Made by a program: the position numbers and the translations under genes. A DNA stretch of 64,000 nucleotides from Methanobacterium ferruginis (GTDB lineage Archaea > Methanobacteriota > Methanobacteria > Methanobacteriales > Methanobacteriaceae): assembly GCF_030296715.1 (NCBI RefSeq), contig NZ_AP027738.1, positions 1,892,026 to 1,956,025 of the forward strand. Reading direction: 5' to 3'. The notes beneath the pieces are model-generated. The model was not told the origin of the DNA. It did not search any database and was given only the letters and a program-made list of their open reading frames with translations. Below, one piece after another: positions 1-50,516 of this stretch; within the stretch, counting starts at the first letter, position 1; every line of letters begins with the position of its first letter.

Positions 1-74
1 AACACATCTCCCGGTTTTACGGTTGATTATCCTTTCGATCCTGATTTTTTTTCCAATCATGAACACCCTCCTGT

Positions 75-235
<161 letters not shown>

Positions 236-284
236 CCAACACTTATTAACATTTTCATAAACCTCCCCCATAAGAAGGACCCCT

Positions 285-16200: not shown

Positions 16201-18247
16201 GGATGAAAATTCCCTGTGTGTTATCTGTTATGCTATTTGACGTAATGTTATTGTTTGATGAATTAAAAAGACTGAGGCCTTCCTGATTATTTGTCACATG
16301 ATTTGAAATAATCTGGTTTCCTGAGGAGTTAGATAAATAGATTCCTTTACTATTACTAATAATATAGTTACCTTGTATTTTACAGTTGCATGCTGAGTCT
16401 AGATATATTCCTGCAGAATTGGTGGCAGCAGTAATCCAGAGATAACGGATCCATGATCCACTACCAAGAGAGGTCACGGTTAAAACAGGTTTCGATGGGT
16501 CAGCAGCCCTTAATGTCACACCCTCACAATCTGGTGTCAGGGTAAGTTTTTTGTTAAGAATGATATTTTCAGTAGGAAGAGTCGCTGCAAGGTAGAGTAA
16601 GTGCCCGTTAATAGTTAATGGATCATCAATTGCTTCTTGGATGGTGGCATAAACTTTTGTTGTGTTGGCATTTTCAACTGGAAGGTTTAATCTGTAAGTT
16701 TCGGTTTGTATTGGTGATTGATTTCCAGTGAAATCTATGGCCATAAATTTTAAAGTAGTAATTCTGTTTTCAAGGAGTATGGGACCCACATACAATGTAC
16801 TTGTGGTTGTAGGGTTACTGCCATTAATTGTGTAATAAATGTGAGGATCAGGGTCGGTGTTATCAGTTACAGTTAAGGTTATATTCTGATAAGTGTTGTA
16901 GGTTCCTCCTGGTAGATTGGCTGTTACGGTTGGTGCTAGGGTATCACTTGATGTTATGGTGATATTTGTTTGTTCAGTCTGTTCATCTAGTGTAGTAGTG
17001 ATGGTTGCTGTTCCTGAAGTGGCTGAGCCGCGGTTGAATGTTGTATTTGCTTTTCCATTGTTGGTGTATGCTGTAGTGGTTATTGTACCTAAATTAGTGG
17101 TGAAATTCACTGGAATACCATCTGGTAGATGACCTTGTGAAGAAGTATCGACTCCATTGCTGTTGTGTGTGAGATCTGCTGTTATGGTAGCGTTATTTGT
17201 CACATTTGTAGGGACTGCAGTTACATTTAGAACCAACCAGGGATCGTATAGGACTGTTCCACCCATTATCATAATATTTGCAGTTTCATTAGAGGACACT
17301 GTTGGGTTGTTAGTTCCCCACCAGTTGTTTGTTGCATTTACATTTCCATTCTCACTGCTAAGCTCATAATCACTGTTTGAAGAAATTCTGTTAAAATGGA
17401 TATCCGCTGAAGAGTTATAAAGATAAATCGTTGCCCAGGTACCAATGATATTATTTTTATAGATATATGTATTGTCTGAATTAGAGATACGAATATCACT
17501 GAGGGTGTTTTCACATATGATACTATTAGCTGAATAATTTGAGATATAAATGCCACCTAAATTATTCTCAAAAAAGATATTATCCATGGAATAATTGAAT
17601 AGTCTGATGGCATCATCGACATTATTATTATCGATGACATTGTCCGTAGAGTTGTATAGGTTAAATCCACCTCCTTCGATATTCACGGAATTATTATTTC
17701 CAGAAATAATGTTGTTCATTGAATTTTCAAGAATAATCCCCATACCATTGTCTATCACAATATTTTCCAATATCTCATTGTTGTTTGAATTTAGAAGTCT
17801 CATTCCAGAACAGCCATTTCCTCTAGCTGAATTTCCAGAAATAGTACAATCATTAGCAGAATTAACATAAACACCAGTAATACCCCCAGTTATAGTAAAA
17901 CCACTAATTATGGATCCACTACCTCCAGAGTTTATAGTTAATGTAGGGTTTGAATAATTGGAAGCTTTAATTGTAACATTAGAACCAGTATCTGTTTTTA
18001 AATTAATATTTTTGTTAATAACAATATTCTCAGTATAAGTATAAGCAGAACCATTATTATCATTCACTATTATGGAATCACCAGAAGATGCACTGTCCAC
18101 CACTGACTGAATACTATCACCCACACTCACATTCCACTCAGCCGCTGAAACTGCTCCACAAAAAAATAACAAAACCACTAAAAACAAGATACCAAAAGAA
18201 AATTTAGACACATTACTCATATTTTTCCCCCCACACATACTTTTCAC
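10289..18247 (-). CDS. giant secreted adhesin-like protein (about 2650 aa) with repeated parallel beta-helix modules, NWWG(T/S)NN motifs and Big/chitobiase-C-like modules
   Basis: N-terminal signal peptide. The likely start is the second ATG, at 18220, after a GGGGGG run. There are four modules of NS/NN-rich beta-helix repeats, each followed by ADLTHNSNG(V/E)D...PDG(I/L)PVNFTT and TLKF(M/I)A(I/V)D..GNQ segments. The architecture is typical of methanogen adhesin-like proteins. Confidence 0.75.
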   Translation of the reverse strand: MKSMCGGKNMSNVSKFSFGILFLVVLLFFCGAVSAAEWNVSVGDSIQSVVDSASSGDSIIVNDNNGSAYTYTENIVINKNINLKTDTGSNVTIKASNYSNPTLTINSGGSGSIISGFTITGGITGVYVNSANDCTISGNSARGNGCSGMRLLNSNNNEILENIVIDNGMGIILENSMNNIISGNNNSVNIEGGGFNLYNSTDNVIDNNNVDDAIRLFNYSMDNIFFENNLGGIYISNYSANSIICENTLSDIRISNSDNTYIYKNNIIGTWATIYLYNSSADIHFNRISSNSDYELSSENGNVNATNNWWGTNNPTVSSNETANIMIMGGTVLYDPWLVLNVTAVPTNVTNNATITADLTHNSNGVDTSSQGHLPDGIPVNFTTNLGTITTTAYTNNGKANTTFNRGSATSGTATITTTLDEQTEQTNITITSSDTLAPTVTANLPGGTYNTYQNITLTVTDNTDPDPHIYYTINGSNPTTTSTLYVGPILLENRITTLKFMAIDFTGNQSPIQTETYRLNLPVENANTTKVYATIQEAIDDPLTINGHLLYLAATLPTENIILNKKLTLTPDCEGVTLRAADPSKPVLTVTSLGSGSWIRYLWITAATNSAGIYLDSACNCKIQGNYIISNSKGIYLSNSSGNQIISNHVTNNQEGLSLFNSSNNNITSNSITDNTQGIFIPAECTELYSSFSLYNTISQNKIKNNHYGIYLLGDWSGIWAIGGMNTSDTSIISNIISENVYGVYSNSSQFNMHFNQLNDNNIADLWLEVIEGISFDAENNWWGSNQILMDYSDYSVPTTPMDIFCHGFVFEQWYDHEALWCVDPWLVLNVIATPTTTYNNSIVTADLTHNSNGVDTSSQGHLPDGIPVNFTTNLGTITTTAYTNNGKANTTFNRGSATSGTATITTTLDEQTEQTNITITSSDTLAPTVVANPASGTYNTTKSVTLTATDNLDPNPTIYYTIDGTNPTTSSTIYNNPITIVNTTTLKFIAVDNAGNQGPVNTEQYIIELIKNINTGRSYFSIQAAINDPLTLSGHTIEVSLGTFTENIIVNKSLTIKAVSEGNVTLFALDSSQPIFTITSSGNGSSIQGFTLIETETSENTKGIHLQSANNCSIIGNIIQGNYYGISIYASNNTLIHNNTINSSSYTAIDISESSNSKIEENQLLNAVIGVNIVNSNDNQLLTNILKQIQFCAIYLSLSSKNIIADNVILQNTYGIQAHNSINNTILYNNISYNRADGINFGGMNCGSNNNIFLGNYISHNSYNGMKFSDSYNNSIYENDISNNRYSGITFYSSSASVNFNRIIENNIYGLETNGNSTINANNNWWGTNNLTVSSNNSSDIHIADGFVDHELWLMLNLTGSTIHVTQNSNSNSEITADLTHNNQGEDTSGSGAIPDGLPVNFTTTLGNITTTTTTRKGRATVNLTSSSSSEATTVFASADDETISKDFRKSFNTIHAAANDPLTRDGDIILVENGTYLENIELNKSLFIISEGNVTVQAANPSLSVFTINTGGNGSVIYGFTIIGANQANQYSEILSPSGILLKSTNNCTIENNTLENNCYGVYVLDSSYNQVKSNIIMNNERGILVPAWCDSFDEFFSSTYDNIPELYEYAILDYEEYCFGTHSISFYNYITENLIMNNTNGIFIESDYYSSSSGSEDTHVLENTIINNYIGIYTYATNAHIHFNRITGNNKTGLFMKGGSVNVINNWWGSNNPVIGTDLSMNADVFYVETTSEQPTIPTWWIGENFTPYLVLNISPTSYKVSNGKIYESTITADLTHNSNGEDISLQGCIPDNIPVYFVAQNGTIPFLQYTLNGKASSTLVLNPNFYNVTGVIAIVDNEGVLTSVDWAAQANVRIISTAIDLSTTQPLDVTYTLPLNESTSWVSVLWKNTGLFHNEVDLIVNGNVVLSWNVVNSAYITYQNSYSAQVFNQILYINGIFLNPLESNIYLQNFITLNPQYQNYTIEQLEDVFLTLIKLQNNFTDNEINFIKNNRNMFIDSMYVLMTYPGDVTEYVTLKNPNTNETLSFIKPGDVILRESPMIYFNGYTEDGNAGYEGVRSFTIATTKVTNNVVQYWLAKQSLYAPGAMKAAYGTFLTSLLVIKCHDMVADQAAEEFNVTWSRTTPVVVSCLDDAKDAYITGESNLRMGMDVNGTISNVWAFRFACSSAFSPIEYCVASDPTSLSVTLGLGERILNGEIPELFYSNGYLVYKIQGKDDLFLLLDPVTGIVTDCALGINGVYCFHDQITDNQISLAENLTSSDPTIQPEWMNSISNSTIPLGSIIAVIGESACGTATLGELYFLGGLAPILVPLVTLKLLDNLRPGAIEEAESNGLFNTAEYFRNNNSFDIAWDGMLQWLGKGSGPPQGVWDEHNQYIQNNPNVQRNLEDIRNLKENTRALWDGIIELLLPPDRTPTFEELQDAYLIASMIVASLIANNEANPTISKTSILGLGSGLIMSLSSSILYKTIKADGPPNPKGIFLGGVIGAGGIYLNYIDSGLSEEWTFWNGFKFTSNLVLSYVLPLRGGGVAGELYEVQFIKEGVAIVASHIPISFEGYLIQTLPVRVGVKFVGGVEVPEIIYVARVVYIKYGVIESVIKTAYGKSVQEIVQNFVATELIPDGIFTRIDEYISETNQSTSHTYNNITDYISTP
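15456..15709. repeat. 254-bp segment repeated exactly 1470 bp downstream (16926-17179), inside the adhesin gene
   Basis: Compared base by base; the two copies are identical. Confidence 0.85.
16926..17179. repeat. second copy of the exact 254-bp intragenic repeat
   Basis: Identical to 15456-15709. Confidence 0.85.
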
Positions 18248-20803: not shown

Positions 20804-21295
20804 TTGAAAATATCTAATTATCCTGTGATGAAGTTATCTGAAATAAGATTACACCCTCAAAACCCAAGACAACATACTGATGACCAGATAAAAAAGATTG
20901 CAAATAGCATTAAAGAACTTGGATGGGGAAGGCCATTAATATTAAGCCGTGATAATTTCATTTTAGCTGGTCATGGTGCATACTTAGCAGCCAGAGACAT
21001 TTTAGGATATACTGAAGCACCAATAAAAAATATGAACCACTCCCATGATGCTCCTGAAGCATTGGCCTATATGGTTGCAGATAATAAATTGACTGAAGAA
21101 AGTGATTGGAACTATGCAAAACTAGAAGCATTAAATGAAAATCTACAACTTGAAGGATTTGACACTACACTAACCGCCTTTGATACAGATTTGAAAACAC
21201 CTAACTTTCAACCAGTTAACGAAGAAAAACAACCCAGACTTGATAAGTTAGATCCTAAAGGTTTAAAATGTCCAGAGTGTGGATACGAATGGTAG
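20804..21295 (+). CDS. ParB-like nuclease domain (ParB N-terminal/sulfiredoxin-fold) protein
   Basis: LSEIRLHPQNPRQHTDDQIKKIANSIKELGWGRPLILSRDNFILAGHGAYLAA resembles ParBc (..NPR......l..L..SI...G...Pi.v......ii.G.hR..Aa). The C-terminus has a C..C pair. Confidence 0.6.
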   Translation: MKISNYPVMKLSEIRLHPQNPRQHTDDQIKKIANSIKELGWGRPLILSRDNFILAGHGAYLAARDILGYTEAPIKNMNHSHDAPEALAYMVADNKLTEESDWNYAKLEALNENLQLEGFDTTLTAFDTDLKTPNFQPVNEEKQPRLDKLDPKGLKCPECGYEW

Positions 21296-21903
21296 ATTTG
21301 AAAGTTGATTTCTGTAGTTATGAAGCAGCTAAACATGCAGTATTGCATTGGCATTACTCACGGTCAATGCCCGCAGGAAAACTAGTGAAAATTGGTGCAT
21401 GGGAAAATGGAAAATTCATTGGATGTGTGCTCTTTGGAAGAGGAGCAAACAATCACATAGGAAATCCTTACAATTTAAAACAAAATGAAGTATGTGAACT
21501 TGTTAGAATTGCACTAAAAAACCACCAAACAAATGTAACCAAAATAGTAAGCAAATCTTTAAAACTATTGAAAAAAACGAATCCGTACCTTAAATTAGTT
21601 GTAAGCTATGCAGATAAAGACCAAAATCATTTAGGGAAAATATATCAAGCAGGTAATTGGATATATGATGGTTTAAAAAACCAAAACACTGCAGGAGCAT
21701 TTATAATTAAAAACAAAAAGGTACACCCCCGATCTGTTGCATCTATGGGATGGGTACAATCATTAAAATGGATTCAGGAGAATGTTGACCCTAATGCTAG
21801 AACACATATTACAAAAGGTAAATTCAAATATCTCTACCCCTTGTCCAAAAAAACACGTGAACAAATCAGACCTTTAAAGAAACCTTATCCTAGGCGGTTG
21901 TAG
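21268..21903 (+). CDS. hypothetical protein (211 aa), overlaps the ParB-like gene; possible DNA-modification partner
   Basis: Overlapping, translationally coupled ORF. No confident motif. Confidence 0.45.
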   Translation: MSRVWIRMVDLKVDFCSYEAAKHAVLHWHYSRSMPAGKLVKIGAWENGKFIGCVLFGRGANNHIGNPYNLKQNEVCELVRIALKNHQTNVTKIVSKSLKLLKKTNPYLKLVVSYADKDQNHLGKIYQAGNWIYDGLKNQNTAGAFIIKNKKVHPRSVASMGWVQSLKWIQENVDPNARTHITKGKFKYLYPLSKKTREQIRPLKKPYPRRL

Positions 21904-21970
21904 TTTAATGGAGGCCAAAACCCATCATCATACCAATGATGAGAAGCTGGTTCAAATCCAGCCAACCGCA
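21894..21970 (+). tRNA. tRNA-like gene (77 nt); putative anticodon UAC (Val) in a non-canonical loop
   Basis: Folded by hand. Acceptor stem 7 bp and perfect (gcggttg/caaccgc). D stem gttt/aaac with a GG-containing loop. T stem gctgg/ccagc with loop TTCAAAT. The anticodon stem is 6 bp (catcat/atgatg) with loop CATACCA, so position 33 is A and position 37 is C, both atypical. The 5' end overlaps the stop codon of the upstream ORF. Confidence 0.45.
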
Positions 21971-22033
21971 CTCAAACCTGAATTAATGCGAGATTAGAAA
22001 AATTATTATACAAAATTAATATTACTAACTAAC

Positions 22034-23436: not shown

Positions 23437-23994
23437 ATGAAGGAGAAAGAAAACCACCTCGACGCTTTTGAGTATTTTTACAGTCTTGGAGGTGCTGCAT
23501 CTGCAGAAAATTGCAGAAAAGTTGCAGATAAATTTCAGATATCTGAAAGATCATTCTGGAACTGGTACAAGGAATTAGGGTGGAAAGAAAGGGTTCACCT
23601 ACGCAACATTGAAGTTGCCAAAGGAGTGGAAGAAAAAACGGTCTCTACTCTTATTGAGAATAAAGCGAAGTACCTATCTTACGTTCACAAATTATTCGAT
23701 GACTGGAAAGCGAAGGTTGATGCTGGTGAGGTTCCAGTTGAGATTAAATCCGTTAGTGATGTTGATAAAATTGTGAAACTTGCTTTACTACTTCAAGATG
23801 AGGCTACTGATAAGACTGAAACTTCTGTTACTGGAACTTTAAATTTTAAAGCCCAGGGTTTGGAGCGCCTGAGAAGGATTGAGGCACAGCATGACAGCGG
23901 TGACGGTGGCCACTCCTCAGTCGACGGAGGACCTGCAGGCACAGGTGAATCTGGAACTGAGGAACATTCAGAAACAAGAACCAGAGATAAATAG
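23437..23994 (+). CDS. putative terminase small subunit (HTH-type)
   Basis: It lies immediately upstream of the terminase large subunit, which it overlaps. The N-terminus is helix-rich (FEYFYSLGGAASAENCRKVADKFQISERSFWNW) and the C-terminus is acidic. Confidence 0.5.
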   Translation: MKEKENHLDAFEYFYSLGGAASAENCRKVADKFQISERSFWNWYKELGWKERVHLRNIEVAKGVEEKTVSTLIENKAKYLSYVHKLFDDWKAKVDAGEVPVEIKSVSDVDKIVKLALLLQDEATDKTETSVTGTLNFKAQGLERLRRIEAQHDSGDGGHSSVDGGPAGTGESGTEEHSETRTRDK

Positions 23995-25447
23995 TCTTGA
24001 AGATCTTATTGATTGGAAGATTACAGTCTGGGAAAAACAGTTTGAAGTTGATGACCGGGTTCGATGCCTGTGGCAGTCCCTTTCCCGGGATGAAAAAGAT
24101 AATTTTTATGATACTGTTATTCTGAATCCTTACATTCCTGTTGTTCCATTTTTCCAGCAGATATTGCTTCTGGTTACCCATGGATCTACCTTGTATGGTG
24201 GTGCTCGTGGTGGGGGTAAGACTGAGGCCAGTTTGATAGCTGCTCTGCAATATGTTGATTATCCTCAGTGGAAAGCTGGTATTTTCCGTTTAACTTATCC
24301 TGATTTGTCAGCTCCAGGGGCCATAATGGACCGTGCCCTTGACTGGCTGAGTAAAGATAGAAATCCCCTACTTGAAGAGGCGGGTATTGCACCACGTTGG
24401 GATAAAGCTGACAAGGTTTTCATATTTCCTAGTGGTGCTAAGGTTAAATTTGCCCATGTTCAGCATAATAAAGATGCTGAGAAATACCAGGGCAGTGAAT
24501 TCCATTTATTAATATTTGATGAAGCAGTACTCTTCACTGAGTACAAAATTACTAGGATTAAAGGTTCTAATCGTAAGAAAATCAATGATCCGCTACCGAT
24601 ACGGATTATTTTCACAGGTAACCCTGGTGGTATTAGTCATGATTATTTCAAGGATAGATTTATTGATGGTCCTGGCCTGTTCATTGACAGTAAATATACT
24701 GATAATCCGTACTTGGACCATGAGAAATATGAAGAGATTTTTATTGAAATTGAGGACAGTGATCCTGTCCTTTGGAGGCAGTGGAAGCATGGTGATTGGA
24801 ATGCAGTGCCTGAAGGTAAACTCTTCAAACGAAAATGGTTCACCAAGGCCAGTCGTCTCTATGAAGTCATCACAGAAAAAATACTGCAATGGGTGCGTTT
24901 CTGGGATCTGGCCGCTACAGAAGAAGAAGATGATACCAAACAGGGAGGAGCTGACTGGACCGTGGGAATGCTCCTCGGCCTAGGAGAATCTGGTAAAGTT
25001 TACCTGGAGGATATTGTAAGATTCCGAAAAGATGCAGATGAAGCTGAAGAACTGATCCTGGAAACCGCCAGGAAAGATGCAGAAAAATATGGAAGGACCA
25101 ATATCAAGATCCGGATAGAAAAAGAAGGCGGAGCATCAGCCAATTATGTGATGAACACATTCAGCAAATACCTACCCGGATTTGACTTTGAAGGCCACAA
25201 CGTCCAAAGAAAAAGCAAATTAGACCGAGCCAGAGCATTTGTCAGTTTCATTAAACACGGTCACCTCAAAATAAGAGAAGGAGCAAGCTGGATAACCACA
25301 TTCATAAATGAAGTAGCATCATTCCCCACCAAAGGAATCCATGATGACCAAGTGGACACTCTCAGCGGAGGATTAAACGAACTATTTTATGGTGAGCAAC
25401 CCACGGAACGTGTTCCATTCAACCCAACATTAAGGAGCAGAAGATAA
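23879..25447 (+). CDS. terL: terminase large subunit
   Basis: Walker A GGARGGGKT, and a Walker B-like hhhhDE in HLLIFDEAV. 522 aa. The following gene is portal-sized. The true start may lie downstream of 23879. Confidence 0.8.
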   Translation: MRHSMTAVTVATPQSTEDLQAQVNLELRNIQKQEPEINSLEDLIDWKITVWEKQFEVDDRVRCLWQSLSRDEKDNFYDTVILNPYIPVVPFFQQILLLVTHGSTLYGGARGGGKTEASLIAALQYVDYPQWKAGIFRLTYPDLSAPGAIMDRALDWLSKDRNPLLEEAGIAPRWDKADKVFIFPSGAKVKFAHVQHNKDAEKYQGSEFHLLIFDEAVLFTEYKITRIKGSNRKKINDPLPIRIIFTGNPGGISHDYFKDRFIDGPGLFIDSKYTDNPYLDHEKYEEIFIEIEDSDPVLWRQWKHGDWNAVPEGKLFKRKWFTKASRLYEVITEKILQWVRFWDLAATEEEDDTKQGGADWTVGMLLGLGESGKVYLEDIVRFRKDADEAEELILETARKDAEKYGRTNIKIRIEKEGGASANYVMNTFSKYLPGFDFEGHNVQRKSKLDRARAFVSFIKHGHLKIREGASWITTFINEVASFPTKGIHDDQVDTLSGGLNELFYGEQPTERVPFNPTLRSRR

Positions 25448-26904: not shown

Positions 26905-27612
26905 TTATAAATATAGAAATTTTAGAAGTACAATAAAAAGTATCATAGTAATTAATATTATTTTAAGGTGGTACATAACCTTTTGACTTCTACCATATGA
27001 CCATATAACGAAGATTATTATTAATAAAAATGCTGTAAGGAATAAAAAGAAGTTCCATACTATTAATTGCAAATATGCCAGGATTATTCCAAAATAACCA
27101 ATTAAAACATATTTCTCAGAATTAGTTTCTAAACGTTCTGTGACTTGCTGGCCTTCTGTTAACTGTTCTAACATTTTAAATAATTTATTTATATTTCTAA
27201 CACTATCAGAACCGATTAGAAAATCTCCACCTAAAATATCATCATCACAAATAATCCTTATCCAATTTTGGATGTACACTGTACCAATTAAACCATATGG
27301 ATGAAATTCTTTGAAAGGATATTTTTCAAAGGATTTAATATTAGAACGATTCAAAACGAACGATAAATCCTCTTTCAGATTCTGATACTTTGAATCAGAA
27401 TCATCAAAACTATTATACTCTAAAGCATCATCTTTAATGGTCAGATCTCCACGAGAAAAATATGCACATGGCTTGTTTTTAGCCCGTGGAAATCCCTCAG
27501 GTAAACTAAAATTACGTAATAATATCTCACTAAAAGATGAAGATTTAATTAATTTTACAATATCATCTAAATGATTTATAGAGCTTATCCAGATAACAGA
27601 TTCTAAATCCAT
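26905..27612 (-). CDS. antisense moron: protein with C-terminal transmembrane helices (235 aa)
   Basis: Opposite strand within the structural module. Very AT-rich. Two C-terminal TM segments. Confidence 0.5.
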   Translation of the reverse strand: MDLESVIWISSINHLDDIVKLIKSSSFSEILLRNFSLPEGFPRAKNKPCAYFSRGDLTIKDDALEYNSFDDSDSKYQNLKEDLSFVLNRSNIKSFEKYPFKEFHPYGLIGTVYIQNWIRIICDDDILGGDFLIGSDSVRNINKLFKMLEQLTEGQQVTERLETNSEKYVLIGYFGIILAYLQLIVWNFFLFLTAFLLIIIFVIWSYGRSQKVMYHLKIILITMILFIVLLKFLYL

Positions 27613-31556: not shown

Positions 31557-32435
31557 GTGAAAAAGATGAGTTTACCAGATAGTTTAGTGAATTACTACGA
31601 TTCAGAAGTGATCCGAGAATACAACGAAACTCTCGTTGGAATTGACTTAATTTTTAAAGGACCTGATCTACCTAAAGGAAAAGGTTCTGTCACTCGGCCA
31701 ATTGTTCACAAATTCAAGGGGAAGGCCAAACGTGGATATCGTATAAGAGAAGTTCCACGTGAAACCATAGACCGGGACCAGGTCACTGTTAAAGTAATGG
31801 AAAGTGCATATGGATTCGCACTCCACAGGAAAGACCTGGAAGCCTACGAAACAGATGGAGTGTCAGCACTTAACCTGGAAGAATCACTGGAATGTGCACG
31901 TATAGTGGCTAAAGATGTTGATGATATAATCTTCAATGGAGACACCAATGCCGGTACTAAAGGTATCTACAAAGATGCTGGTGATACTTTCACTGTTAAA
32001 ACTGATTATGAATGGAATAATGAAGTAAACAGAAACCCCTTAGACACTATCATAGATGCACTAACAAAATTTGAAGCTAGTGGCATTTATGATGCTAAAA
32101 AAGCTAAACTCTGCCTAAGTCCCATGGCTTACAGGTTAGCATGGAAACAAGCCCCAGGTAGTGGAGCTGTCTATATGGAAGAAATCGCTAAACAATTCAG
32201 TACCACTCCAGACAATATCCTGAAATCCAACAGTATAGATGCTGATGGTGGTTTGATTGCTGCATTTGATAAACAGGTAGCTGAAAGGAATGTTGAAGAA
32301 GAAGCCAACCTGATACCATTTGAATTACAGCCTAACAGTGAGTATCCTTTCAACTTCGAAACCTACCAAGTTTACCATGTTAAAAAGACTGAAGGGTTCC
32401 TGAAATTACGTAACTTAGTAGCTGATACAACTTAA
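31557..32435 (+). CDS. putative major capsid protein
   Basis: 292 aa, GGTG upstream. The position and size match a major capsid gene. Confidence 0.4.
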   Translation: MKKMSLPDSLVNYYDSEVIREYNETLVGIDLIFKGPDLPKGKGSVTRPIVHKFKGKAKRGYRIREVPRETIDRDQVTVKVMESAYGFALHRKDLEAYETDGVSALNLEESLECARIVAKDVDDIIFNGDTNAGTKGIYKDAGDTFTVKTDYEWNNEVNRNPLDTIIDALTKFEASGIYDAKKAKLCLSPMAYRLAWKQAPGSGAVYMEEIAKQFSTTPDNILKSNSIDADGGLIAAFDKQVAERNVEEEANLIPFELQPNSEYPFNFETYQVYHVKKTEGFLKLRNLVADTT

Positions 32436-35529: not shown

Positions 35530-36069
35530 CTATTTTATAGATTGGAAAATAGTGTTTGCTGTTTCGTTGATTTCTTGTTCATCAGATTCAAACCCATAAA
35601 CTGAGATTAAATACACAGTATCTTTAACCTTAAAAACCATGTTAAATGACATAGTAGCCAAAGTATCATCTTGCTTTCCAATGATCTTTTCTACAACAAC
35701 ACCATTAGGATTCGTTTCAATGGAATTATATGCTATTTCATCACTTGAATTACTTTCAACATTAGTCCGATAATTATTTATTAATTCCGTTGCTGAAGTA
35801 GCTGTCACATTCTTAAATACAATGAAGTTATGTTTATGGAGTGTATTTTTTCCTTTGAAATAAGCAATTTCATTTAAAATATCCCCACTAGCATTAATAT
35901 TATGCTTAGTATATTCAGCACTACTAAAACTGTCAGGGTAATCAAAACTCATAACACCATCCGAAAATGTTATAATCTCATTAGATTCATTAGAAAACGG
36001 ATTAGTACCAGCATAAAACAATACAACAATAAAAAATACCATAATCAGTGAAATACTCTTTTTTCCCAA
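35530..36069 (-). CDS. antisense moron: secreted protein with an N-terminal signal/TM
   Basis: MGKKSISLIMVFFIVVLFYAG reads as a signal anchor. Opposite strand, AT-rich. Confidence 0.5.
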   Translation of the reverse strand: MGKKSISLIMVFFIVVLFYAGTNPFSNESNEIITFSDGVMSFDYPDSFSSAEYTKHNINASGDILNEIAYFKGKNTLHKHNFIVFKNVTATSATELINNYRTNVESNSSDEIAYNSIETNPNGVVVEKIIGKQDDTLATMSFNMVFKVKDTVYLISVYGFESDEQEINETANTIFQSIK

Positions 36070-36194: not shown

Positions 36195-36779
36195 ATGACA
36201 AAAACACCTATTAAAATACCAAACCTGTATCCAGAAGAGGAAATCATTATTGTAGGGAATTCTGTGAAGATTAAAGGATATAAACCAGCAGATAAACCCT
36301 ACGAAATACAAATACGCCACCTGAGAACACAAGCCCTAGAAGTCCAGAAAAAAGTTAACGAAATCATCAGAAAAGAAGACAACACTATCAAACCAGATGC
36401 AGAGTTAACTGATGACGAAATGAAGAGATTGAAAAAATTACACGAAGAAATTCTTAACATAGGAGACTTCATTATTTATGGAGATCCTGAACGAGAAAAC
36501 CAGGACCAGATGGAAGGACCCGCCTGGAAATTAGCACAAAGAGGAATAAAAAGATACTACTACCCAGACAAAACTTCTTCAGAACTAGATGAAATAGAAG
36601 ACATCGAACTCGCAGAAGGCCATGTTAAACAGATAGCCAATATCATGATCCGATTAAGCAGTCCACCCAGTGGCCTGGAACGATCCATTCAGGCACGTAA
36701 AAAAGAACAGGAAAAAAATGGGGCTGGTAAGGGAAAGCAATCCAAAGGAAAAAACACCTCACAGCACAAGAAGAAATAA
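36195..36779 (+). CDS. tail assembly chaperone (G-like)
   Basis: GGAGG lies 8 nt upstream of the ATG at 36195. Acidic protein with a Lys-rich tail. It is located between the major tail protein and the tape measure. A downstream ORF is open in the -1 frame. Confidence 0.55.
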   Translation: MTKTPIKIPNLYPEEEIIIVGNSVKIKGYKPADKPYEIQIRHLRTQALEVQKKVNEIIRKEDNTIKPDAELTDDEMKRLKKLHEEILNIGDFIIYGDPERENQDQMEGPAWKLAQRGIKRYYYPDKTSSELDEIEDIELAEGHVKQIANIMIRLSSPPSGLERSIQARKKEQEKNGAGKGKQSKGKNTSQHKKK

Positions 36780-36964
36780 TCGAATTCCGAAAACTAATGA
36801 GCTCCATATGTTTTGAAACAGGATGGTCCGAAGAATATGCCTATGAACGAGACATGAACGTGATACACGACATGTTATACAGGGATCTAGAATATTTCCC
36901 AGAAGGGCCAGAAGATATTAAAGAAGATTTTGAAGCTAAAAGAGGAATGTTGAGAAGATAATTG
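36749..36964 (+). promoter_or_regulatory. putative -1 programmed ribosomal frameshift: slippery heptamer A_AAA_AAC at 36749-36755, followed by a -1-frame extension open to 36964 (GT-like product)
   Basis: In the zero frame the site reads tcc aaa gga aaa aac. The -1 frame is open from 36731 and reads KKHLTAQEEIIEFRKLMSSICFETGW...MLRR*. Confidence 0.45.
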
Positions 36965-36984: not shown

Positions 36985-37311
36985 TTACTTTATTTTCTTT
37001 TCATTCTCATAAAATTTTAAGAACCTTTCTTGAAGATCTACAATCAACCTAATTTTCTTTAAAGGATGTGAAGGGACTAATCTATCAGGAATAACAACAG
37101 TTATATCCATAATTAAAGTTTTTAAATCTTCATTATATTTGCATTCAGATTCCACACTATAATCACTAGATAAATTAAAAATAAAATTATCTAACCTATC
37201 CTTTAATGATTCATATTCCTCTTCACTACTATATCTTTCTTTAAAAGTAAAATTGAAATCTGTGGCTATGGATTTTGTTTTAATAACGTTTCTTTCAATC
37301 AGTTCTAACAC
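36985..37311 (-). CDS. hypothetical protein (108 aa), first gene of an antisense cassette inserted in the tail module
   Basis: ORF. Confidence 0.45.
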   Translation of the reverse strand: MLELIERNVIKTKSIATDFNFTFKERYSSEEEYESLKDRLDNFIFNLSSDYSVESECKYNEDLKTLIMDITVVIPDRLVPSHPLKKIRLIVDLQERFLKFYENEKKIK

Positions 37312-37329
37312 AATATATTACCTCAATAC

Positions 37330-39075
37330 TCAAATTATTTTATAAACAGTTAAACCTACTTTCAATATATCTATAAATTCACTTGGAATCCCCACTCTAT
37401 CTCCAACAGCTGCAGAAGCAACGTTTTTACCTTCAATTTCCAAAGATTTAACATCTTCTTCCAAGAATTCATTTGGAAGTTTGTATCCTATTCGTTGACC
37501 TTTAGATAATTCTCCATCAGTAAGTTCGACTCCAACTACCACATTCTTTTTAAAGAATTTGACAATTTTACCAACAGGCTCATAATTTGAAGGTACTTGT
37601 GGAAGTCTACCCGGCTGATAAAACAAATCCCTTAAAACTTCAGGATCCCATTCATATTCCATCATTCCTCTAATGAGAAGAAACAATTCCCAAGTTGTAG
37701 TTAATAAAATCTTATCCCTAACAGCATCTTCAACCTGTTTATCTGTGAAAACAGCCTTATTATCTCTTTTAAGAGGGGCTATGTTCCTTTGATGATTAAT
37801 GATAAACACACCACCAATATCAAATCTTTCCCACTCCTCCATACGCCTACCCCTATATTTCACCAATTGCATTATATCCTCCTCTTTAGTATTAGTGGAG
37901 GGGCCTTTTACTTCAACTAACAACGGTGAATTATCACATATCCTCAGATCTTCTTCTTTATTCTCACCTTCTTTAAGCTCATTATCAACATTAACAACTT
38001 CCTCAAATCCTATAAACTCAAGACACTTCTCAACATCGTCAACTAACTCATCACCAGTGCCTGTAAGAATACCATGTAAAAAACCATGCTCACGTCTTTC
38101 AGACACAATATCTTCCTCAATCGATTCAATTTTACCTTTAGCCTTAACAGCTATCTCTTCAATTTGACCTTTCAAATCTTTAATCGATGAAAACTCATAC
38201 TCATCCTCTTCAATCCACTTACCCTTAACATTAGGAAACAAATGAGGAGATATTGAAGGCAAAACTTCATTCAACAAATCCAAAAAAAGTTCAGGAGTTC
38301 TGGGCATATTAGGAAGAATTAATATCTTTCCCGAAGTTTCAGTATTATCATCAGGGATTAAACATCCAACAGATTGATTGAATTTATTATTCAAAAGGTT
38401 CCTAAAATTAGGTATAGAATAACCTCCAAATCTTGAATTATAATTAGTTTCTCTTAAGTACTTCTTAAAAAATTCATTAAAGGCACTAATATCAGTTGCA
38501 ATGTTAATTTCTGCCCCTTCATCTTCATACACATTTAAATGAATTAGAATTGATAGAAAAGACCAATTATTACAGAACACCTCTTCACCTATTAAATCTC
38601 CATACTTGTCTCTTTTTCCGAACTGAAAATGATAATCAAATTTAGGTTCCGCAAAAATAAGAATTAACCCACCATTATCAAAAATACGATCAAAATTTTC
38701 ATGATGTTTCTGCATAGATTTAGGCCTAGGATCGACCCATCCATCTTTACAAGTACTAAAAAGCTTTTTAACATTTCCAGGATCTTCATAAGTTATATTT
38801 ACTTCATCTACGATCCCACTATCAAGATCAATTATCACCACATCTCGTTCAGAAATAACAGGAAGATGATCCTTACCTTTAACTACATCATAGACGTCAC
38901 TCCGATTAACATTATATGGAGTTCCAAAACTACCTTTAGAAACATTAAAACCCTTCGATTTAAGTTCTTTAAAAATTTCATCAGGCAGGTCAATTAAAAG
39001 AATATCTGGCTTATTTGATTCTACCTCTTCTACAGAAGACAATTTATCATCTAAAAGTTCTTTTAAATCAGCCAT
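37330..39075 (-). CDS. 581-aa protein with a PD-(D/E)xK-like nuclease motif in its C-terminal third (candidate defence nuclease, Shedu/Mrr-like)
   Basis: GFEEVVNVD...EEDLRICDNSPLLVEVKGPS fits the E...D...(E)VK arrangement. No other domain recognised. Confidence 0.45.
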   Translation of the reverse strand: MADLKELLDDKLSSVEEVESNKPDILLIDLPDEIFKELKSKGFNVSKGSFGTPYNVNRSDVYDVVKGKDHLPVISERDVVIIDLDSGIVDEVNITYEDPGNVKKLFSTCKDGWVDPRPKSMQKHHENFDRIFDNGGLILIFAEPKFDYHFQFGKRDKYGDLIGEEVFCNNWSFLSILIHLNVYEDEGAEINIATDISAFNEFFKKYLRETNYNSRFGGYSIPNFRNLLNNKFNQSVGCLIPDDNTETSGKILILPNMPRTPELFLDLLNEVLPSISPHLFPNVKGKWIEEDEYEFSSIKDLKGQIEEIAVKAKGKIESIEEDIVSERREHGFLHGILTGTGDELVDDVEKCLEFIGFEEVVNVDNELKEGENKEEDLRICDNSPLLVEVKGPSTNTKEEDIMQLVKYRGRRMEEWERFDIGGVFIINHQRNIAPLKRDNKAVFTDKQVEDAVRDKILLTTTWELFLLIRGMMEYEWDPEVLRDLFYQPGRLPQVPSNYEPVGKIVKFFKKNVVVGVELTDGELSKGQRIGYKLPNEFLEEDVKSLEIEGKNVASAAVGDRVGIPSEFIDILKVGLTVYKII

Positions 39076-39079
39076 ACAA

Positions 39080-39775
39080 TCACCCCAAATTAGAAATTCT
39101 CCTGTTTATATAACTCACACAGTTAAAAGCATCTTTTTTCTTTACATCATCAACTCTGATCTCTTGTTGATTTTTTAGTAGGATCTGAATTGTTTTTTTG
39201 CTTGAAGCATAAAGGGCGAGTGGAGTGAAAAACACCAGCCCTACAACTATTTTATTGCTCTTATTTGACAACAATGTAGCACTTTCAATTTCATCATAGT
39301 AAAAAAATTCTTTACCCTTAATTTCTATTCCTTCACTTGATAATGCAATAAATTTACCTGAACCACCCTTACTAATATAATAACCATGTTCATCTAACAC
39401 TTCATGCACCAATGAAACACTTTCAGCAGCTTCCCGTTTTGCTTTTGCCAATACAAATGCCTGATATTCTTCCCAACTCTTACCTTTTTTCTTTGATTTG
39501 TCTTCATCTGTGTATTCATCATCATAAACAGACTCTAACAGGGTTACAATGTTTTCACCACACTCACCACAAAAATTAGCTATAATTGGTGTTTCACTAC
39601 CACAAAAAGGACAGATAATTGTTTCATTAAAAAGTAAATCATCATCTATTTGTTCATCAGAATCTAGAAAAAATAATATACCCCCACATTCACATTCATC
39701 ATCGAAATCTTCAGGTTTTTCATCTTCTTCTAGTTCATAATATCCTTTACAGTTTTGACAAACAAGATACCCCAC
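39080..39775 (-). CDS. double zinc-ribbon protein (231 aa)
   Basis: CQNCKGYY...CECGG and [19 protein letters not shown]. Confidence 0.5.
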
Positions 39776-39835
39776 GTATAACCGCCCCCTTTGATTACAT
39801 AATTTCTAATAAGATTATCCCTAAATTAAAAAGGA

Positions 39836-40243
39836 TTAGGCATTTTTTATTTTGTTTTCTACATCATTGTTTATTGCATTTTTATTAGGATTTCCTGGTT
39901 GATCAGTCCAAAGTATACTATACCATTTACCACTTTTCTGGAAGTAAATATCACCTTTTACTTTATTATCATCATCAACGTCAGTGTAGACACAGTAATA
40001 TACAGTTACACCATCTACTATTTTTGTACCATAATCAGTAACAGTAAAACCTAATTGTGCATCTGAATCATTAGGAATTACACTATCCCACGCTTTTGCA
40101 TCATCATAAGTCTGCAAATCAGTGAAATCTTGAAATCTCACACTATAATCTCCAGAAGTACAACCAGACACAAAAACTATTGAAACAGTTAAAAAAACAA
40201 GAATTAACATTTTTTTAAATTTTTTTCCATTATTTGCCCCCAA
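39836..40243 (-). CDS. small secreted lipoprotein-like protein
   Basis: Signal peptide followed by VSGCTSGD, a lipobox-like Cys. Confidence 0.5.
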   Translation of the reverse strand: MGANNGKKFKKMLILVFLTVSIVFVSGCTSGDYSVRFQDFTDLQTYDDAKAWDSVIPNDSDAQLGFTVTDYGTKIVDGVTVYYCVYTDVDDDNKVKGDIYFQKSGKWYSILWTDQPGNPNKNAINNDVENKIKNA

Positions 40244-40308: not shown

Positions 40309-43071
40309 ATGGGAGATAAAAGCTTTGGCATTACCGTAACAGGCGACATCTCAGACGTCATGTCTAAATTAGAAGAATTCACTGGGAAACTAGATGAAAT
40401 ACAAGATAAATCTATCGCCCTTGACGTAGATATCAATGAAGGTGAACTAGATAATCTCAGTGCTGAAGCTAATGAGGCTGCTGAAGATGTTGCAGGCATA
40501 GGTGATGCTAGCGAAGCTGCTGGAAGTGAAGTAGACAGTAGCATGTCCACAGCATCATCATCAGTATCGGAGGTAGGTACTTCTGCTTCTGAAGCACAGG
40601 CCCAAGTTGATGAATTAGGAGATGAAGCCCTGGAGACTGGGGATGAATTTGAGTTTGGAATGAATGAAGCTACCATAGCGATAATGGCCGCTACAGCCGC
40701 ATTGGAATTAGGAGCACAACAATTAGATGAATGGAACATTGGAACAGGCCAATTATCTATCCAATCTGACATAGCTGAAGGTGACCTTCGGGACATGTTA
40801 GCATATATAACTAATGCAACTTTCCCAATGGAAGAAGCTGAGCAATATGTAGGATATCTTGACCGTATTGGTGTTGAAGGAACAGACTCCCTTGCGAAAA
40901 ACGCAACATATATGGACTGGATACATGATTCCCTTGGAATCACCAGTGACAGTGTAATTAAACTCATGCAGAGCTATACAGTCATGGGTGGGAACATTGA
41001 CGATGTTTCAGAGTCGTTTAACGCCCTATACTATGCTCAAAGTAATATGAATGCCGATACAATGGAACAGTTCATCCCATGGTTAGCAAAATATGATTTT
41101 ACTCTTAGAGAGATGGGTTTAAGTTGGGATGCTGCTGCTGTGGCTGTGGTTGCTGCACAAAAGAAATTTGGTGGTGGTCGTGCTGCATATCAAGGATTAA
41201 ATGAAGTCATCCAAGAGTCTAACGGTGATATTAGTAAAATGGAAGAGCTTCTTGGCTTACAATCAGGTGCATTGAGTAATGCGTCAGAAGAAACAGGAAA
41301 ATATAAAGGTAAACTGGCAGAAGCAGCAGCTCAGGAAGCTGAGCATAAAACATTGTTACAACAAATTTACGCATGGCTTGAAGATCTTGGAATAAAATAT
41401 GGGGACATTGGCTCTGTTATAATGCAATTTGGGGAGATTATAGGTGGTGGTTGGTTAACTATCGCCGCCGGAGCTAAATTATTGGACTTTTTTAATGTCA
41501 CTGAGAATGCCAGTCAGAAATGGGGGCAAGTGACTTTAAACGCATTTAAACGAGTTATAGGGGGAGCAAAAGATTTAGGATCCAGTTTATTCCAAACTAT
41601 TAAATCATGGATCGGGTGGGGGGACGATGCAGCAAAGGCTAGTGAAACTGCAATGGTTAAAGTGGGTGATGGGGCAAGCAGAGGAGCATCCAGAAGCAGT
41701 GTTTTATTAGATGAAGCTGGAAATGTTCTTTGGACTGATGTGGATAATGTAATTGGACGTGTAGGAAGTAAAGCTGTTGATAGTGAAGTTGTTGGATCTG
41801 CTATTTCTGAAAGTGTAGGTACTGGTTTTTTAACAGGAGCCACTAAAGCAGTAGGGTGGATTGGAACTGGAGCAACACTTCTAATCGATGGGTTAGCTAA
41901 TTACACCGAAGCCTTAGAAGATCCATTAGGTCATTTTTATGGGTGGGCTGCTGACCTTTTAATGCCTAAACAATTCAGATTAGCTCTTTCACCCGAACAT
42001 ATTATGAAATTCCTTGTTGGGGAAGACACATATAATAGTTTCAAATCATGGGCTAAAATCACTATAGAAGATCCGATGAGGCGGGCTATTGATGAGACCT
42101 GGGGAGATGTTTCCAACTGGTGGAATGATCTCACAGGCCAAACTGCCATTCAAACTACTGAAACTGCAAACAATACAGCAAATAATGTTAAAGAATCAAT
42201 AAATTCAGTTGGTATTTCTGCAATAAACGCCGGAACTACAGTTATAGGTGTGGCTAATGAAAGTGCGGCAGTGAACCAACAAGCAGCAGCCACCTCACAA
42301 ACCGCATGGGAATTATTTTATACTCAATTACAAAGCGAAGCTCAGGAATCCCTAGCAACACTCAAAGAAATTTATAGTTATCTTGGATACACTGAGGAAG
42401 AAGAAAATTATACGATGGGAGATTTAGCAGCAGCAAGGGGAAAAGCATATACGGATTTGATTAAGCAGAGAAATGCCATTCAAACTGCATATCAACAAGA
42501 GACAGATCCAACAAAAAAAGCTAGCTTAAAAACTCAGTTAGATGCAGCCCAAAAACAGTTGAATGAGTATATGACTACTAAATACACTAAGTCTGGGCAG
42601 AATGTTGGTAGTGCATGGAGTAGTGGAGTAATAAGTGGAATAACATCAAGTACTGCTGATATTAACGCTGCGGCTGCTGCAGCTACTCAGGGCCTTGTGG
42701 GATATAGTCCACCTAAAACTGGCCCTCTCCAGGAGATTGGGACTTGGGCAGAAAACATTGCAGATGCTTGGATCCAAGGACTCGTAAGTGGTTTGTCTTC
42801 TAGTAAAGGATTAGTTTCTTCTGCTTTGGGTGATGTTGGTTTTAATGATGTTGTTAACTCTGTTCCTTTACCTTCTGCTGCTTCTGTTTTTAATTCTAAT
42901 TCTCTTGGTGGTGTTGTGGTTCAATTCACAGGCCCTATCACTGTTCCTGAAGGTAGTGATCCTGTGCAGGTTGGACAAGATTTTGCTAGGGGTGCAGCAC
43001 CTACTATGGCTGATGAATTGAGAAGGCAGGTTGGTAATATGGGTATTAATCCGGTTAATGATAGGAGATGA
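40309..43071 (+). CDS. tail tape measure protein
   Basis: 920 aa, helix-rich, with Ala/Gly-rich segments. It sits in the canonical position after the chaperone. Confidence 0.7.
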   Translation: MGDKSFGITVTGDISDVMSKLEEFTGKLDEIQDKSIALDVDINEGELDNLSAEANEAAEDVAGIGDASEAAGSEVDSSMSTASSSVSEVGTSASEAQAQVDELGDEALETGDEFEFGMNEATIAIMAATAALELGAQQLDEWNIGTGQLSIQSDIAEGDLRDMLAYITNATFPMEEAEQYVGYLDRIGVEGTDSLAKNATYMDWIHDSLGITSDSVIKLMQSYTVMGGNIDDVSESFNALYYAQSNMNADTMEQFIPWLAKYDFTLREMGLSWDAAAVAVVAAQKKFGGGRAAYQGLNEVIQESNGDISKMEELLGLQSGALSNASEETGKYKGKLAEAAAQEAEHKTLLQQIYAWLEDLGIKYGDIGSVIMQFGEIIGGGWLTIAAGAKLLDFFNVTENASQKWGQVTLNAFKRVIGGAKDLGSSLFQTIKSWIGWGDDAAKASETAMVKVGDGASRGASRSSVLLDEAGNVLWTDVDNVIGRVGSKAVDSEVVGSAISESVGTGFLTGATKAVGWIGTGATLLIDGLANYTEALEDPLGHFYGWAADLLMPKQFRLALSPEHIMKFLVGEDTYNSFKSWAKITIEDPMRRAIDETWGDVSNWWNDLTGQTAIQTTETANNTANNVKESINSVGISAINAGTTVIGVANESAAVNQQAAATSQTAWELFYTQLQSEAQESLATLKEIYSYLGYTEEEENYTMGDLAAARGKAYTDLIKQRNAIQTAYQQETDPTKKASLKTQLDAAQKQLNEYMTTKYTKSGQNVGSAWSSGVISGITSSTADINAAAAAATQGLVGYSPPKTGPLQEIGTWAENIADAWIQGLVSGLSSSKGLVSSALGDVGFNDVVNSVPLPSAASVFNSNSLGGVVVQFTGPITVPEGSDPVQVGQDFARGAAPTMADELRRQVGNMGINPVNDRR

Positions 43072-49544: not shown

Positions 49545-50516
49545 ATGAAAAATATGAGTTGTTTTTTAGAATTAGGAAGCAAAGGAGATGACAGAATAGC
49601 ATTACTCGAAAGGAGATTAAAATATCTCGGATACTACCGAGGAGTGATAGACGACTACTATGGCCCACTACTCAACCAAGCAGTCCAACAATACCAGGCC
49701 AACAAAGGATTACAAATGGACTGTGTGGGGCCAATTACATGGAACAGTCTATTCCCATCAGACACCTGCCCATCTAACTGGTTATACCAGGGCTGCCAGG
49801 GGGATAATGTTAAAGCTCAGCAGATCACTCTCCAAGGCCTAGGATTCTATACTGGCTATAAAGTGGATGGTGATTTTGGACAATATATGGACCAGGAAGT
49901 CAGGAAATTCCAACAGGCTACTGGCATAATAGTAGATGGAATAATCGGTGACCAGACCATAAAAGCAGAATTAACCTACCAAAAAACTGCTGCAAAACCA
50001 GTCACTGATGGAAATTGTTTTGAATCAGCCCAGTACACTGTTTGGAAACAGGAAATGAATAAATACACACGCCGAACATGCGGACCATTCGCAGTAAAAG
50101 AAGCCATCTTCGAATGGGGATTAAATCCAGATATTGACACTGTGGTGAAATACATAAACACTCAGTTAGGTTATACTGGAACCGCACCATCCGATATACT
50201 GGAAGGAGTGCCTAAGTTAACCGATGCCATGAGTGTACCCTGCAAAGCATATCTTATGAACCATACTGAAATTGGTGGGTTCCCAGGTTTAGGTGAAGTA
50301 TTGGCTGATCCTAAAAAGACTACAATAGCTCATATTGCATATAAAAGCAGCAGCTGCAACCATTACCATACACCAGTTAAACTCTGTTTGAATGAAAAAA
50401 GAATTACAATTGCAGAGAACTTACATGGAGCTTATGAAAAGTACAGTTTCGCTGGATACACTCCTCTGATTGAGAATTGTGCACAGAAAACCTGGATGAT
50501 CTTTGAGCAGATCTAA
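49545..50516 (+). CDS. pei: pseudomurein endoisopeptidase-like lysin (PeiW/PeiP family). It has two N-terminal PG_binding_1/pseudomurein-binding repeats and a C-terminal Cys-protease-like domain.
   Basis: Repeats LERRLKYLGYYRGVIDDYYGPLLNQAVQQYQANKGLQMDCVGPITWNSL and ITLQGLGFYTGYKVDGDFGQYMDQEVRKFQQATGIIVDGIIGDQT. RRTCGPFAVKEA is a candidate catalytic Cys motif (CxxFA-type), with downstream His/Asp candidates. It sits at the end of the tail module. Confidence 0.65.
   Translation: MKNMSCFLELGSKGDDRIALLERRLKYLGYYRGVIDDYYGPLLNQAVQQYQANKGLQMDCVGPITWNSLFPSDTCPSNWLYQGCQGDNVKAQQITLQGLGFYTGYKVDGDFGQYMDQEVRKFQQATGIIVDGIIGDQTIKAELTYQKTAAKPVTDGNCFESAQYTVWKQEMNKYTRRTCGPFAVKEAIFEWGLNPDIDTVVKYINTQLGYTGTAPSDILEGVPKLTDAMSVPCKAYLMNHTEIGGFPGLGEVLADPKKTTIAHIAYKSSSCNHYHTPVKLCLNEKRITIAENLHGAYEKYSFAGYTPLIENCAQKTWMIFEQI

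Follow-up and report, generated by a model that had tools for sequence, protein, structure and literature searches.

Between the tail chaperone and tape-measure genes of a head-tail provirus in Methanobacterium ferruginis lies a gene for a 581-amino-acid (aa) protein with a PD-(D/E)xK nuclease domain, a member of a sizeable family that has no name. We studied this gene in a window of 64,000 nucleotides (nt) from contig NZ_AP027738.1; coordinates are window positions unless another locus is named. The gene is one of four AT-rich open reading frames (ORFs) on the minus strand, here called the cassette, which encode proteins of 108, 581, 231 and 135 aa (Table 1). An initial annotation had described these four antisense genes and proposed that they form one defence or exclusion module. 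All four ORFs were found at the coordinates it gave and on that strand; the single module was not. We consider it moderately probable that the 581-aa protein is a stand-alone nuclease from an unnamed mobile family, one of several independent accessory genes (morons) in this provirus, and that it serves the lysogen in defence or exclusion, a role to which its genomic context points.

A three-domain protein with a conserved PD-(D/E)xK motif

The 581-aa protein is 100% identical to an M. ferruginis "hypothetical protein," and its family has a fixed architecture: a class I glutamine amidotransferase (GATase1)-like domain without the catalytic triad, a long helix, a nuclease domain, and a barrel resembling domain 2 of EF-Tu. 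The initial annotation was right that a restriction-endonuclease fold follows a separate N-terminal region, and it left those 350 residues uncharacterised; that label no longer applies, as the region resolves into the GATase1-like domain and the helix. The C-terminal barrel, which is like domain 2 of both EF-Tu and IF2, had been overlooked.

Conservation was read from an alignment of 41 family members and, separately, from one of 25 divergent members at 26-63% identity. Residues D364, E375, D376, K390, G391 and N427 are present in all 25 divergent members, position 388 is E or D, and the invariant columns among the 41 members agree with this motif. In the structural model, E375-D376 lies at the start of β2, with D376 just before strand 377-379, and E388-V-K390 lies within strand 385-393 (β3). 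This placement of D376 and the ExK motif is the canonical PD-(D/E)xK geometry, and the domain has both the core fold and the catalytic residues of the superfamily. The E...D...EVK arrangement first proposed as the active site is thus correct in part: the EVK is real and conserved, while the FEEV glutamates are not conserved, D381 is kept in only ∼90% of members, and the true invariants are D364, E375 and D376.

Which branch of the superfamily does the domain belong to? A Q403-x2-K406-Y407 motif sits in the next helix; Q403 and Y407 are nearly invariant among the 41 members, and Q403 is replaced in some distant members of the 25-member alignment. In addition, 6 of the 41 members match HSDR_N_2, the best with an E value of 0.0023, below the curated cut-off. 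Together, Q403/K406/Y407 and these sub-threshold matches suggest a RecB/HsdR-like branch. Kinship with Shedu, Mrr or NERD nucleases, which the initial annotation had suggested, found no support: neither the query nor the 41 members matched the DUF4263/SduA, Mrr_cat or NERD models of Pfam at E ≤ 0.1, the query had no corresponding PADLOC match at E ≤ 1, and Mrr-type proteins in BFVD gave weak fold-level matches only. Like Shedu, Mrr and NERD proteins, which are single-protein or small systems of defence islands, the 581-aa protein joins a PD-(D/E)xK nuclease to an N-terminal region of possible sensory or regulatory function, but its N- and C-terminal domains differ from theirs.

The closest folds of the nuclease domain are DNA restriction enzymes, with a fold-level likeness to the FokI/BspD6I cleavage domains and the HsdR N-terminal (RecB-like) domain, all of the PD-(D/E)xK superfamily. 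Aligning the nuclease sub-alignment with the FokI cleavage domain in hhalign gave a probability of 0.1% (with a FokI sequence entered by hand), so the resemblance to FokI is at the fold level only. The PDB was also searched by sequence and by profile, starting from the whole protein, its complete alignment and the nuclease sub-alignment, and no matching chain was returned. Unlike FokI and HsdR, the 581-aa protein has no FokI-type DNA-recognition domain and no helicase motor, and most of its loci have no methyltransferase partner. Set against type IV restriction enzymes, it is solitary in most loci, and no SRA, EVE, PUA or YTH-type reader was detected in it; the barrel is of a different fold class.

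The N-terminal domain has a GATase1 fold, yet neither alignment contains an invariant Cys or His within residues 21-280, and the sequence IFAEP or IFAQP occupies the strand expected to carry the nucleophile elbow. Because it has no conserved Cys or His, the domain is probably not an amidotransferase; more probably it serves in sensing or oligomerisation and has no catalytic function. The closest small relative of the barrel is Pbp11, which binds tRNA, and the barrel resembles tRNA-binding modules (PMC9540759).

We suggest that the RecB/HsdR-like domain would act, through D376, E388 and K390 (together with Q403/Y407), as a metal-dependent nuclease on nucleic acid, DNA being the likeliest substrate. 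The triad-less GATase1-like domain and the long helix would provide the oligomerisation or sensing that licenses cleavage, and the EF-Tu-domain-2-like barrel may bind the substrate or the trigger. Overall, the lysogen would be protected from other viruses or mobile DNA, through either restriction-like immunity or abortive infection.

The protein is undescribed, as the initial annotation had supposed, with no family for it in Pfam, NCBIfam, PHROGs or PADLOC. Searches of these four collections with all cassette proteins gave nothing significant except weak zinc-ribbon matches, and no PADLOC-DB v2 model matched the four, or the 179-aa product of a nearby insert discussed below, at E ≤ 1. In BFVD the 581-aa protein had domain-level matches only and no full-length viral analogue. 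The flanking of this nuclease by a GATase1-like domain and a translation-factor-like barrel occurs in no library searched. Text searches of the literature found nothing on the domain combination, which is not proof that the family is unpublished. As far as the libraries and text searches show, the architecture is new, and so is its occurrence in an archaeal virus.

A variable cargo slot in the tail module

The cassette ORFs are separated, in the order given above, by 18, 4 and 60 nt, and each has a GGTG/GGGG-type ribosome-binding motif ahead of it. Their GC content (0.25-0.33) is lower than that of the flanking structural genes (0.385-0.441), as the initial annotation had stated, and the host-like flanks of the window are at 0.33-0.36. 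Its assignment of the borders also holds, with a chaperone-like gene and its -1 frame upstream and a 920-aa tape-measure-like gene downstream. The -1 frame opens at 36731, 47 nt ahead of the stop at 36777-36779, and extends to 36961 (+); an A_AAA_AAC slippery heptamer sits in the overlap, and the same frame relation is kept in a related virus, locus L053. The INPHARED phage collection contained no match to the tape-measure protein. We looked at the cassette borders for direct or inverted repeats, which could mark a transposon-like insertion, and found only short, chance-level matches. The chaperone/tape-measure junction is normally uninterrupted.

Table 1. Positions of the genes and protein domains considered here, within the 64,000-nt window
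Feature	Position	Strand	Size or residues	GC	Remarks
Orphan ORF	36985-37311	-	108 aa	0.251	18-nt gap; directly downstream of nuclease gene
Three-domain nuclease	37330-39075	-	581 aa	0.330	
C-terminal β-barrel	37333-37593	-	residues ∼495-581		translation-factor domain-2 type
PD-(D/E)xK nuclease domain	37621-38058	-	residues ∼340-485		αβββαβ topology
Catalytic core D376...E388-V-K390	37906-37950	-			motif conservation and model strands
Linker helix	38089-38190	-	residues 296-329 (34 residues)		secondary structure of model
N-terminal domain	38236-39015	-	residues ∼21-280		class I glutamine-amidotransferase-like/ThuA-like fold
Two-zinc-ribbon/PH-like protein	39080-39775	-	231 aa	0.326	
Secreted lipoprotein-like protein	39836-40243	-	135 aa	0.301	signal peptide, then VSGC
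Tail assembly chaperone-like gene with candidate -1 frameshift extension (G/GT type)	36195-36961	+			left slot border
Tape-measure-like protein	40309-43071	+	920 aa		right slot border; phrog_32452 (6.5e-10) and weak tape-measure PHROGs matches
Tyrosine integrase-like gene	285-1502				weak profile match
Terminase large subunit	23879-25447				
HK97-type capsid protein	31557-32435				
Lysis protein	49545-50516				PG-binding repeats

IMG/VR and metagenomes were searched for further relatives of the virus and returned a single one, L053 (a further locus, L069, is probably the same provirus), so the variability of the slot rests on one comparison. L053 has the same flanks, its flanking genes being placed at 51-80% identity overall. 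Gene by gene, identity to the window is 76% (tail tube), 51% (chaperone), 64% (GT extension), 32-46% (tape measure) and 63% (the gene after it). Between its GT extension and tape measure (L053 11616-15239), it carries five different genes, for proteins of 204 aa, 168 aa (multi-pass membrane), 224 aa (Cys/His-rich at the C terminus), 162 aa and 181 aa (a zinc ribbon with a membrane anchor). The only content common to both slots is the N-terminal zinc-ribbon module of the gene adjoining the tape measure. Since the same flanks hold different cargo, the slot in this lineage is a site whose cargo varies, and the nuclease does not belong to the tail. The cassette genes are likewise not conserved parts of a tail module: the related provirus fills the place with other genes and has no nuclease. 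In both respects the cassette has the marks of moron cargo, namely a variable insert of deviating composition between genes conserved in a related virus, and that part of the initial annotation stands.

Prophage defence morons include the P2/P4 hotspot cargo, the prophage-mediated defence genes of mycobacteriophages, and lambda rex, lom and bor. The cassette resembles them in placing genes of deviating composition between conserved viral genes, with contents that vary while the flanks are kept. Transcription of morons is independent of the late operon; the cassette is presumably expressed in the lysogen, because it is transcribed against the late structural operon. It differs from those examples in its archaeal host and archaeal head-tail provirus, in the location of the hotspot between the G/GT chaperone and the tape measure, and in carrying an uncharacterised nuclease family.

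It is tempting to regard four packed, co-directional genes as one system. On such a reading, the four antisense genes would form a multi-gene defence or exclusion system, in which the nuclease has the zinc-ribbon protein as its sensor or partner, with the small protein and lipoprotein as accessories. The tight packing favours this, with gaps of only 4 and 18 nt around the nuclease gene. We examined gene co-occurrence at ∼50 loci encoding relatives of the nuclease, and compared 140 neighbouring proteins from 27 of these loci. No relative of the 108-, 231- or 135-aa protein was found near any of the ∼50 homologs, including the closest ones, which come from Methanobacterium genomes and metagenomes (63%, 62% and 49% identity) and have unrelated neighbours. 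The gene downstream of the closest homolog was compared as a possible counterpart of the 108- or 231-aa protein and proved unrelated. An all-against-all comparison of the 140 proteins revealed no recurrent partner, and in most loci the nuclease gene is solitary. The four cassette genes are not one system.

The 231-aa protein does contain the two CxxC...CxxC ribbons described earlier (C6/C9...C28/C30 and C55/C58...C70/C73), which are followed by a helix and a C-terminal PH-like domain, and it belongs to a small Methanobacterium-type family. Its ribbon module, MGYLVCxxCxGYYELxxGExPxDF..CxCGG (39680-39775, -), is invariant in 14 Methanobacterium-type proteins (among P0122-P0144), where it is joined to unrelated C termini: PH-like, membrane-anchored, DUF515 and others. 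In one metagenomic locus (L054), many zinc-ribbon paralogs stand side by side. Full-length relatives of the 231-aa protein sit in loci without the nuclease. The 108-aa ORF matches no family and has no relative adjoining any nuclease homolog. The 135-aa product appears to be a lipoprotein, as first annotated, given its signal peptide, a lipobox-like VSGC and an N-terminal match to the NCBIfam lipoprotein model lipo_YgdI_YgdR (E value of 0.0013, below the curated cut-off).

Two loci complicate this picture. L053 retains a paralog of the zinc-ribbon N terminus in the same slot, which could speak for a link to the nuclease, but there the nuclease is absent, and zinc ribbons of this type are very common in Methanobacterium proteins. 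In L041, a Methanobacterium metagenome-assembled genome, a variant gene (216-1552) has a membrane anchor and two zinc ribbons in place of the GATase1-like domain, before the helix, nuclease and barrel. The fusion is a weak Rosetta-stone hint of a functional connection; the reading frame of this variant is broken by an ambiguous base. With no recurring neighbour family and the missing co-occurrence, the four-gene system is largely refuted, and we regard it as very improbable. In the reading we favour, the region is a moron slot in the M. ferruginis provirus of a temperate head-tail virus, and it holds several independent accessory genes. Besides the nuclease, the 108-aa orphan, the lipoprotein and the zinc-ribbon/PH protein are morons in their own right, and the lipoprotein could act in surface-level exclusion.

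Family spread, genomic neighbourhoods and function

A word-indexed search gave 297 matches to full-length relatives of ∼590 aa, and an exhaustive profile search of 1.84 billion representatives yielded 695 clusters at E ≤ 1e-30 and 1303 at E ≤ 1e-10. A pattern scan placed the family in 46 of 185,579 species genomes. Its distribution is patchy, covering Methanobacteriales, ANME-1, Methanothrix, Asgard, Bacillota, Acidobacteriota, Planctomycetota, Ignavibacteriota, Cyanobacteria and others. Members also occur on plasmids of Klebsiella, Serratia, Pantoea, Synechocystis and Streptomyces, always annotated as "hypothetical protein." The homolog on Klebsiella pneumoniae plasmid pLH375-4 (WP_227843898.1; L070, 732-2465) adjoins a RelE/ParE-NadS toxin-antitoxin pair, and another is on pSYLB of Synechocystis PCC 6714 (WP_028946592.1; L071, 5965-7725). 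Both are distant (25-28% identity), full-length, and keep the catalytic motif. Escherichia coli genomes contained no DNA-level relative of the Klebsiella plasmid homolog.

The neighbours of these genes are our main guide to function. Homologs often lie near defence genes: a rough count, made with no background comparison, puts defence-type neighbours at about one-third of homolog loci. They include type I restriction-modification (R-M) operons, with hsdR 4-30 nt from several homologs in a minority of loci; type IIG R-M genes; HicAB/RelB and RelE/ParE toxin-antitoxin genes; CHAT-NB-ARC STAND proteins; and DrmMI, AbiE and PDC candidates. A Mokosh MkoA-like helicase (E value of 3.5e-82) and a PLD nuclease stand beside one family member, following the variant gene in L041 (2529-5743). 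Apart from hsdR, only SoFic (E value of 2e-115) gives any sign of recurring as a neighbour. Two unrelated metagenomic loci have SoFic-type Fic proteins immediately adjoining the homolog (L005, 6847-7980; L059, 762-1850 and 10170-11318), and in L059 they are placed inside and alongside a type I R-M operon. Among 2.9 million IMG/VR contigs, two carry relatives of the nuclease: in one the neighbours are SIR2 and Dcm genes, and in the other, a prophage, the neighbour is the S24 repressor. A site beside the S24 repressor is typical of prophage defence genes, and both are typical accessory or immunity positions.

The neighbouring hsdR genes could also be read in another way. The position beside hsdR is the classical place of prrC, and the nuclease might accordingly be an RNA- or tRNA-directed abortive-infection enzyme that follows the logic of PrrC, its barrel binding tRNA and its PD-(D/E)xK domain cutting when the linked restriction system is attacked. 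The tRNA-binding relative of the barrel would fit, as would a sub-threshold match of one family member to the tRNA intron endonuclease family. However, the closest folds of the nuclease domain are those of DNA restriction enzymes, the barrel fold is generic and also serves in protein or ligand binding, and most nuclease loci have no type I R-M neighbour. Unlike PrrC and RloC, the protein has an unrelated catalytic domain and no ABC-ATPase domain. A tRNase of this kind is improbable in our view.

A different objection is that the nuclease may have no immune role at all, being instead a DNA repair or recombination enzyme, a selfish homing-type gene, or a nuclease of the viral cycle, used for example to degrade host DNA. 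Many homolog loci are surrounded by housekeeping genes, and the gene moves between genomes as a single unit. Yet a housekeeping repair factor would not be so rare and patchy, and homing endonucleases do not typically have a fixed architecture of three domains and 590 aa. Near-absence from viral contigs and absence from L053 speak against a viral-cycle function. The gene is antisense to the late operon, and the family recurs beside R-M, SoFic, Mokosh, SIR2 and toxin-antitoxin genes. We judge a non-immune role rather unlikely.

Several observations weigh against the stand-alone immune nuclease that we prefer. About two-thirds of homolog loci have only housekeeping or unknown neighbours, e.g., LeuRS, EF-G and arginase. 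With only two carriers among the IMG/VR contigs, carriage by viruses is exceptional for this family, and PADLOC has no model for it. No recognisable base-modification reader or methyltransferase partner was found. The model has a predicted template modelling (pTM) score of 0.55, so that the relative arrangement of the domains is uncertain. Finally, a promoter and terminator scan of the cassette gave chance-level results with a bacterial scanner that is not applicable to archaea, and a simple TATA-box pattern had no intergenic match at the cassette.

Provirus context and significance

The identity of the window as a head-tail provirus follows from its terminase large subunit, HK97-type capsid protein and lysis protein. 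Two further AT-rich antisense inserts lie within it. The first (35530-36069, -; GC 0.293), which the initial annotation missed, is located between the tube and chaperone genes and encodes the 179-aa protein mentioned above, with an N-terminal membrane anchor; it is absent from L053, where the tube and chaperone genes adjoin. The second (26905-27612, -; GC 0.274) is in the structural module. Neither product matched a family.

A Mom-family protein (21268-21903, +; PF25680, E value of 2.4e-48) is encoded just upstream of the packaging genes, and a tRNA-Val(tac) gene (21894-21971, +) overlaps the 3′ end of its gene. Proteins of the Mom type act in the DNA modification and anti-restriction of phage Mu. 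The virus may modify its own DNA by way of Mom, and this could bear on what the cargo nuclease cuts or spares. Between the integrase-like gene and the packaging genes, a 2652-aa ORF (10289-18247, -) has NosD/right-handed β-helix repeats and CHB_HEX_C/Fn3-associated domains; the giant protein could be adhesin-like or depolymerase-like, whether it is of viral or of host origin.

To our knowledge, very few defence or exclusion genes of archaeal viruses are known, and the viruses of methanogens have barely been studied. In this virus lineage, a cargo hotspot can occupy the chaperone/tape-measure junction, which other genes do not normally interrupt. The work also defines a sizeable "dark" protein family, whose members are "hypothetical proteins" in RefSeq and for which there are a confident three-domain model and a clear active site. 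Since members are found in archaea as well as bacteria, including on Klebsiella and Synechocystis plasmids, the function of the family is directly testable in tractable hosts. A bolder possibility, which we put forward tentatively, is that a new, widespread single-gene immune system of archaea and bacteria is first recognised in the 581-aa protein, and that in this system a pseudo-amidotransferase and a translation-factor-like, possibly tRNA-binding barrel sense infection and license the nuclease. The gene would then have been captured by this virus to exclude competitors, and been carried in a hotspot that previously went unnoticed.

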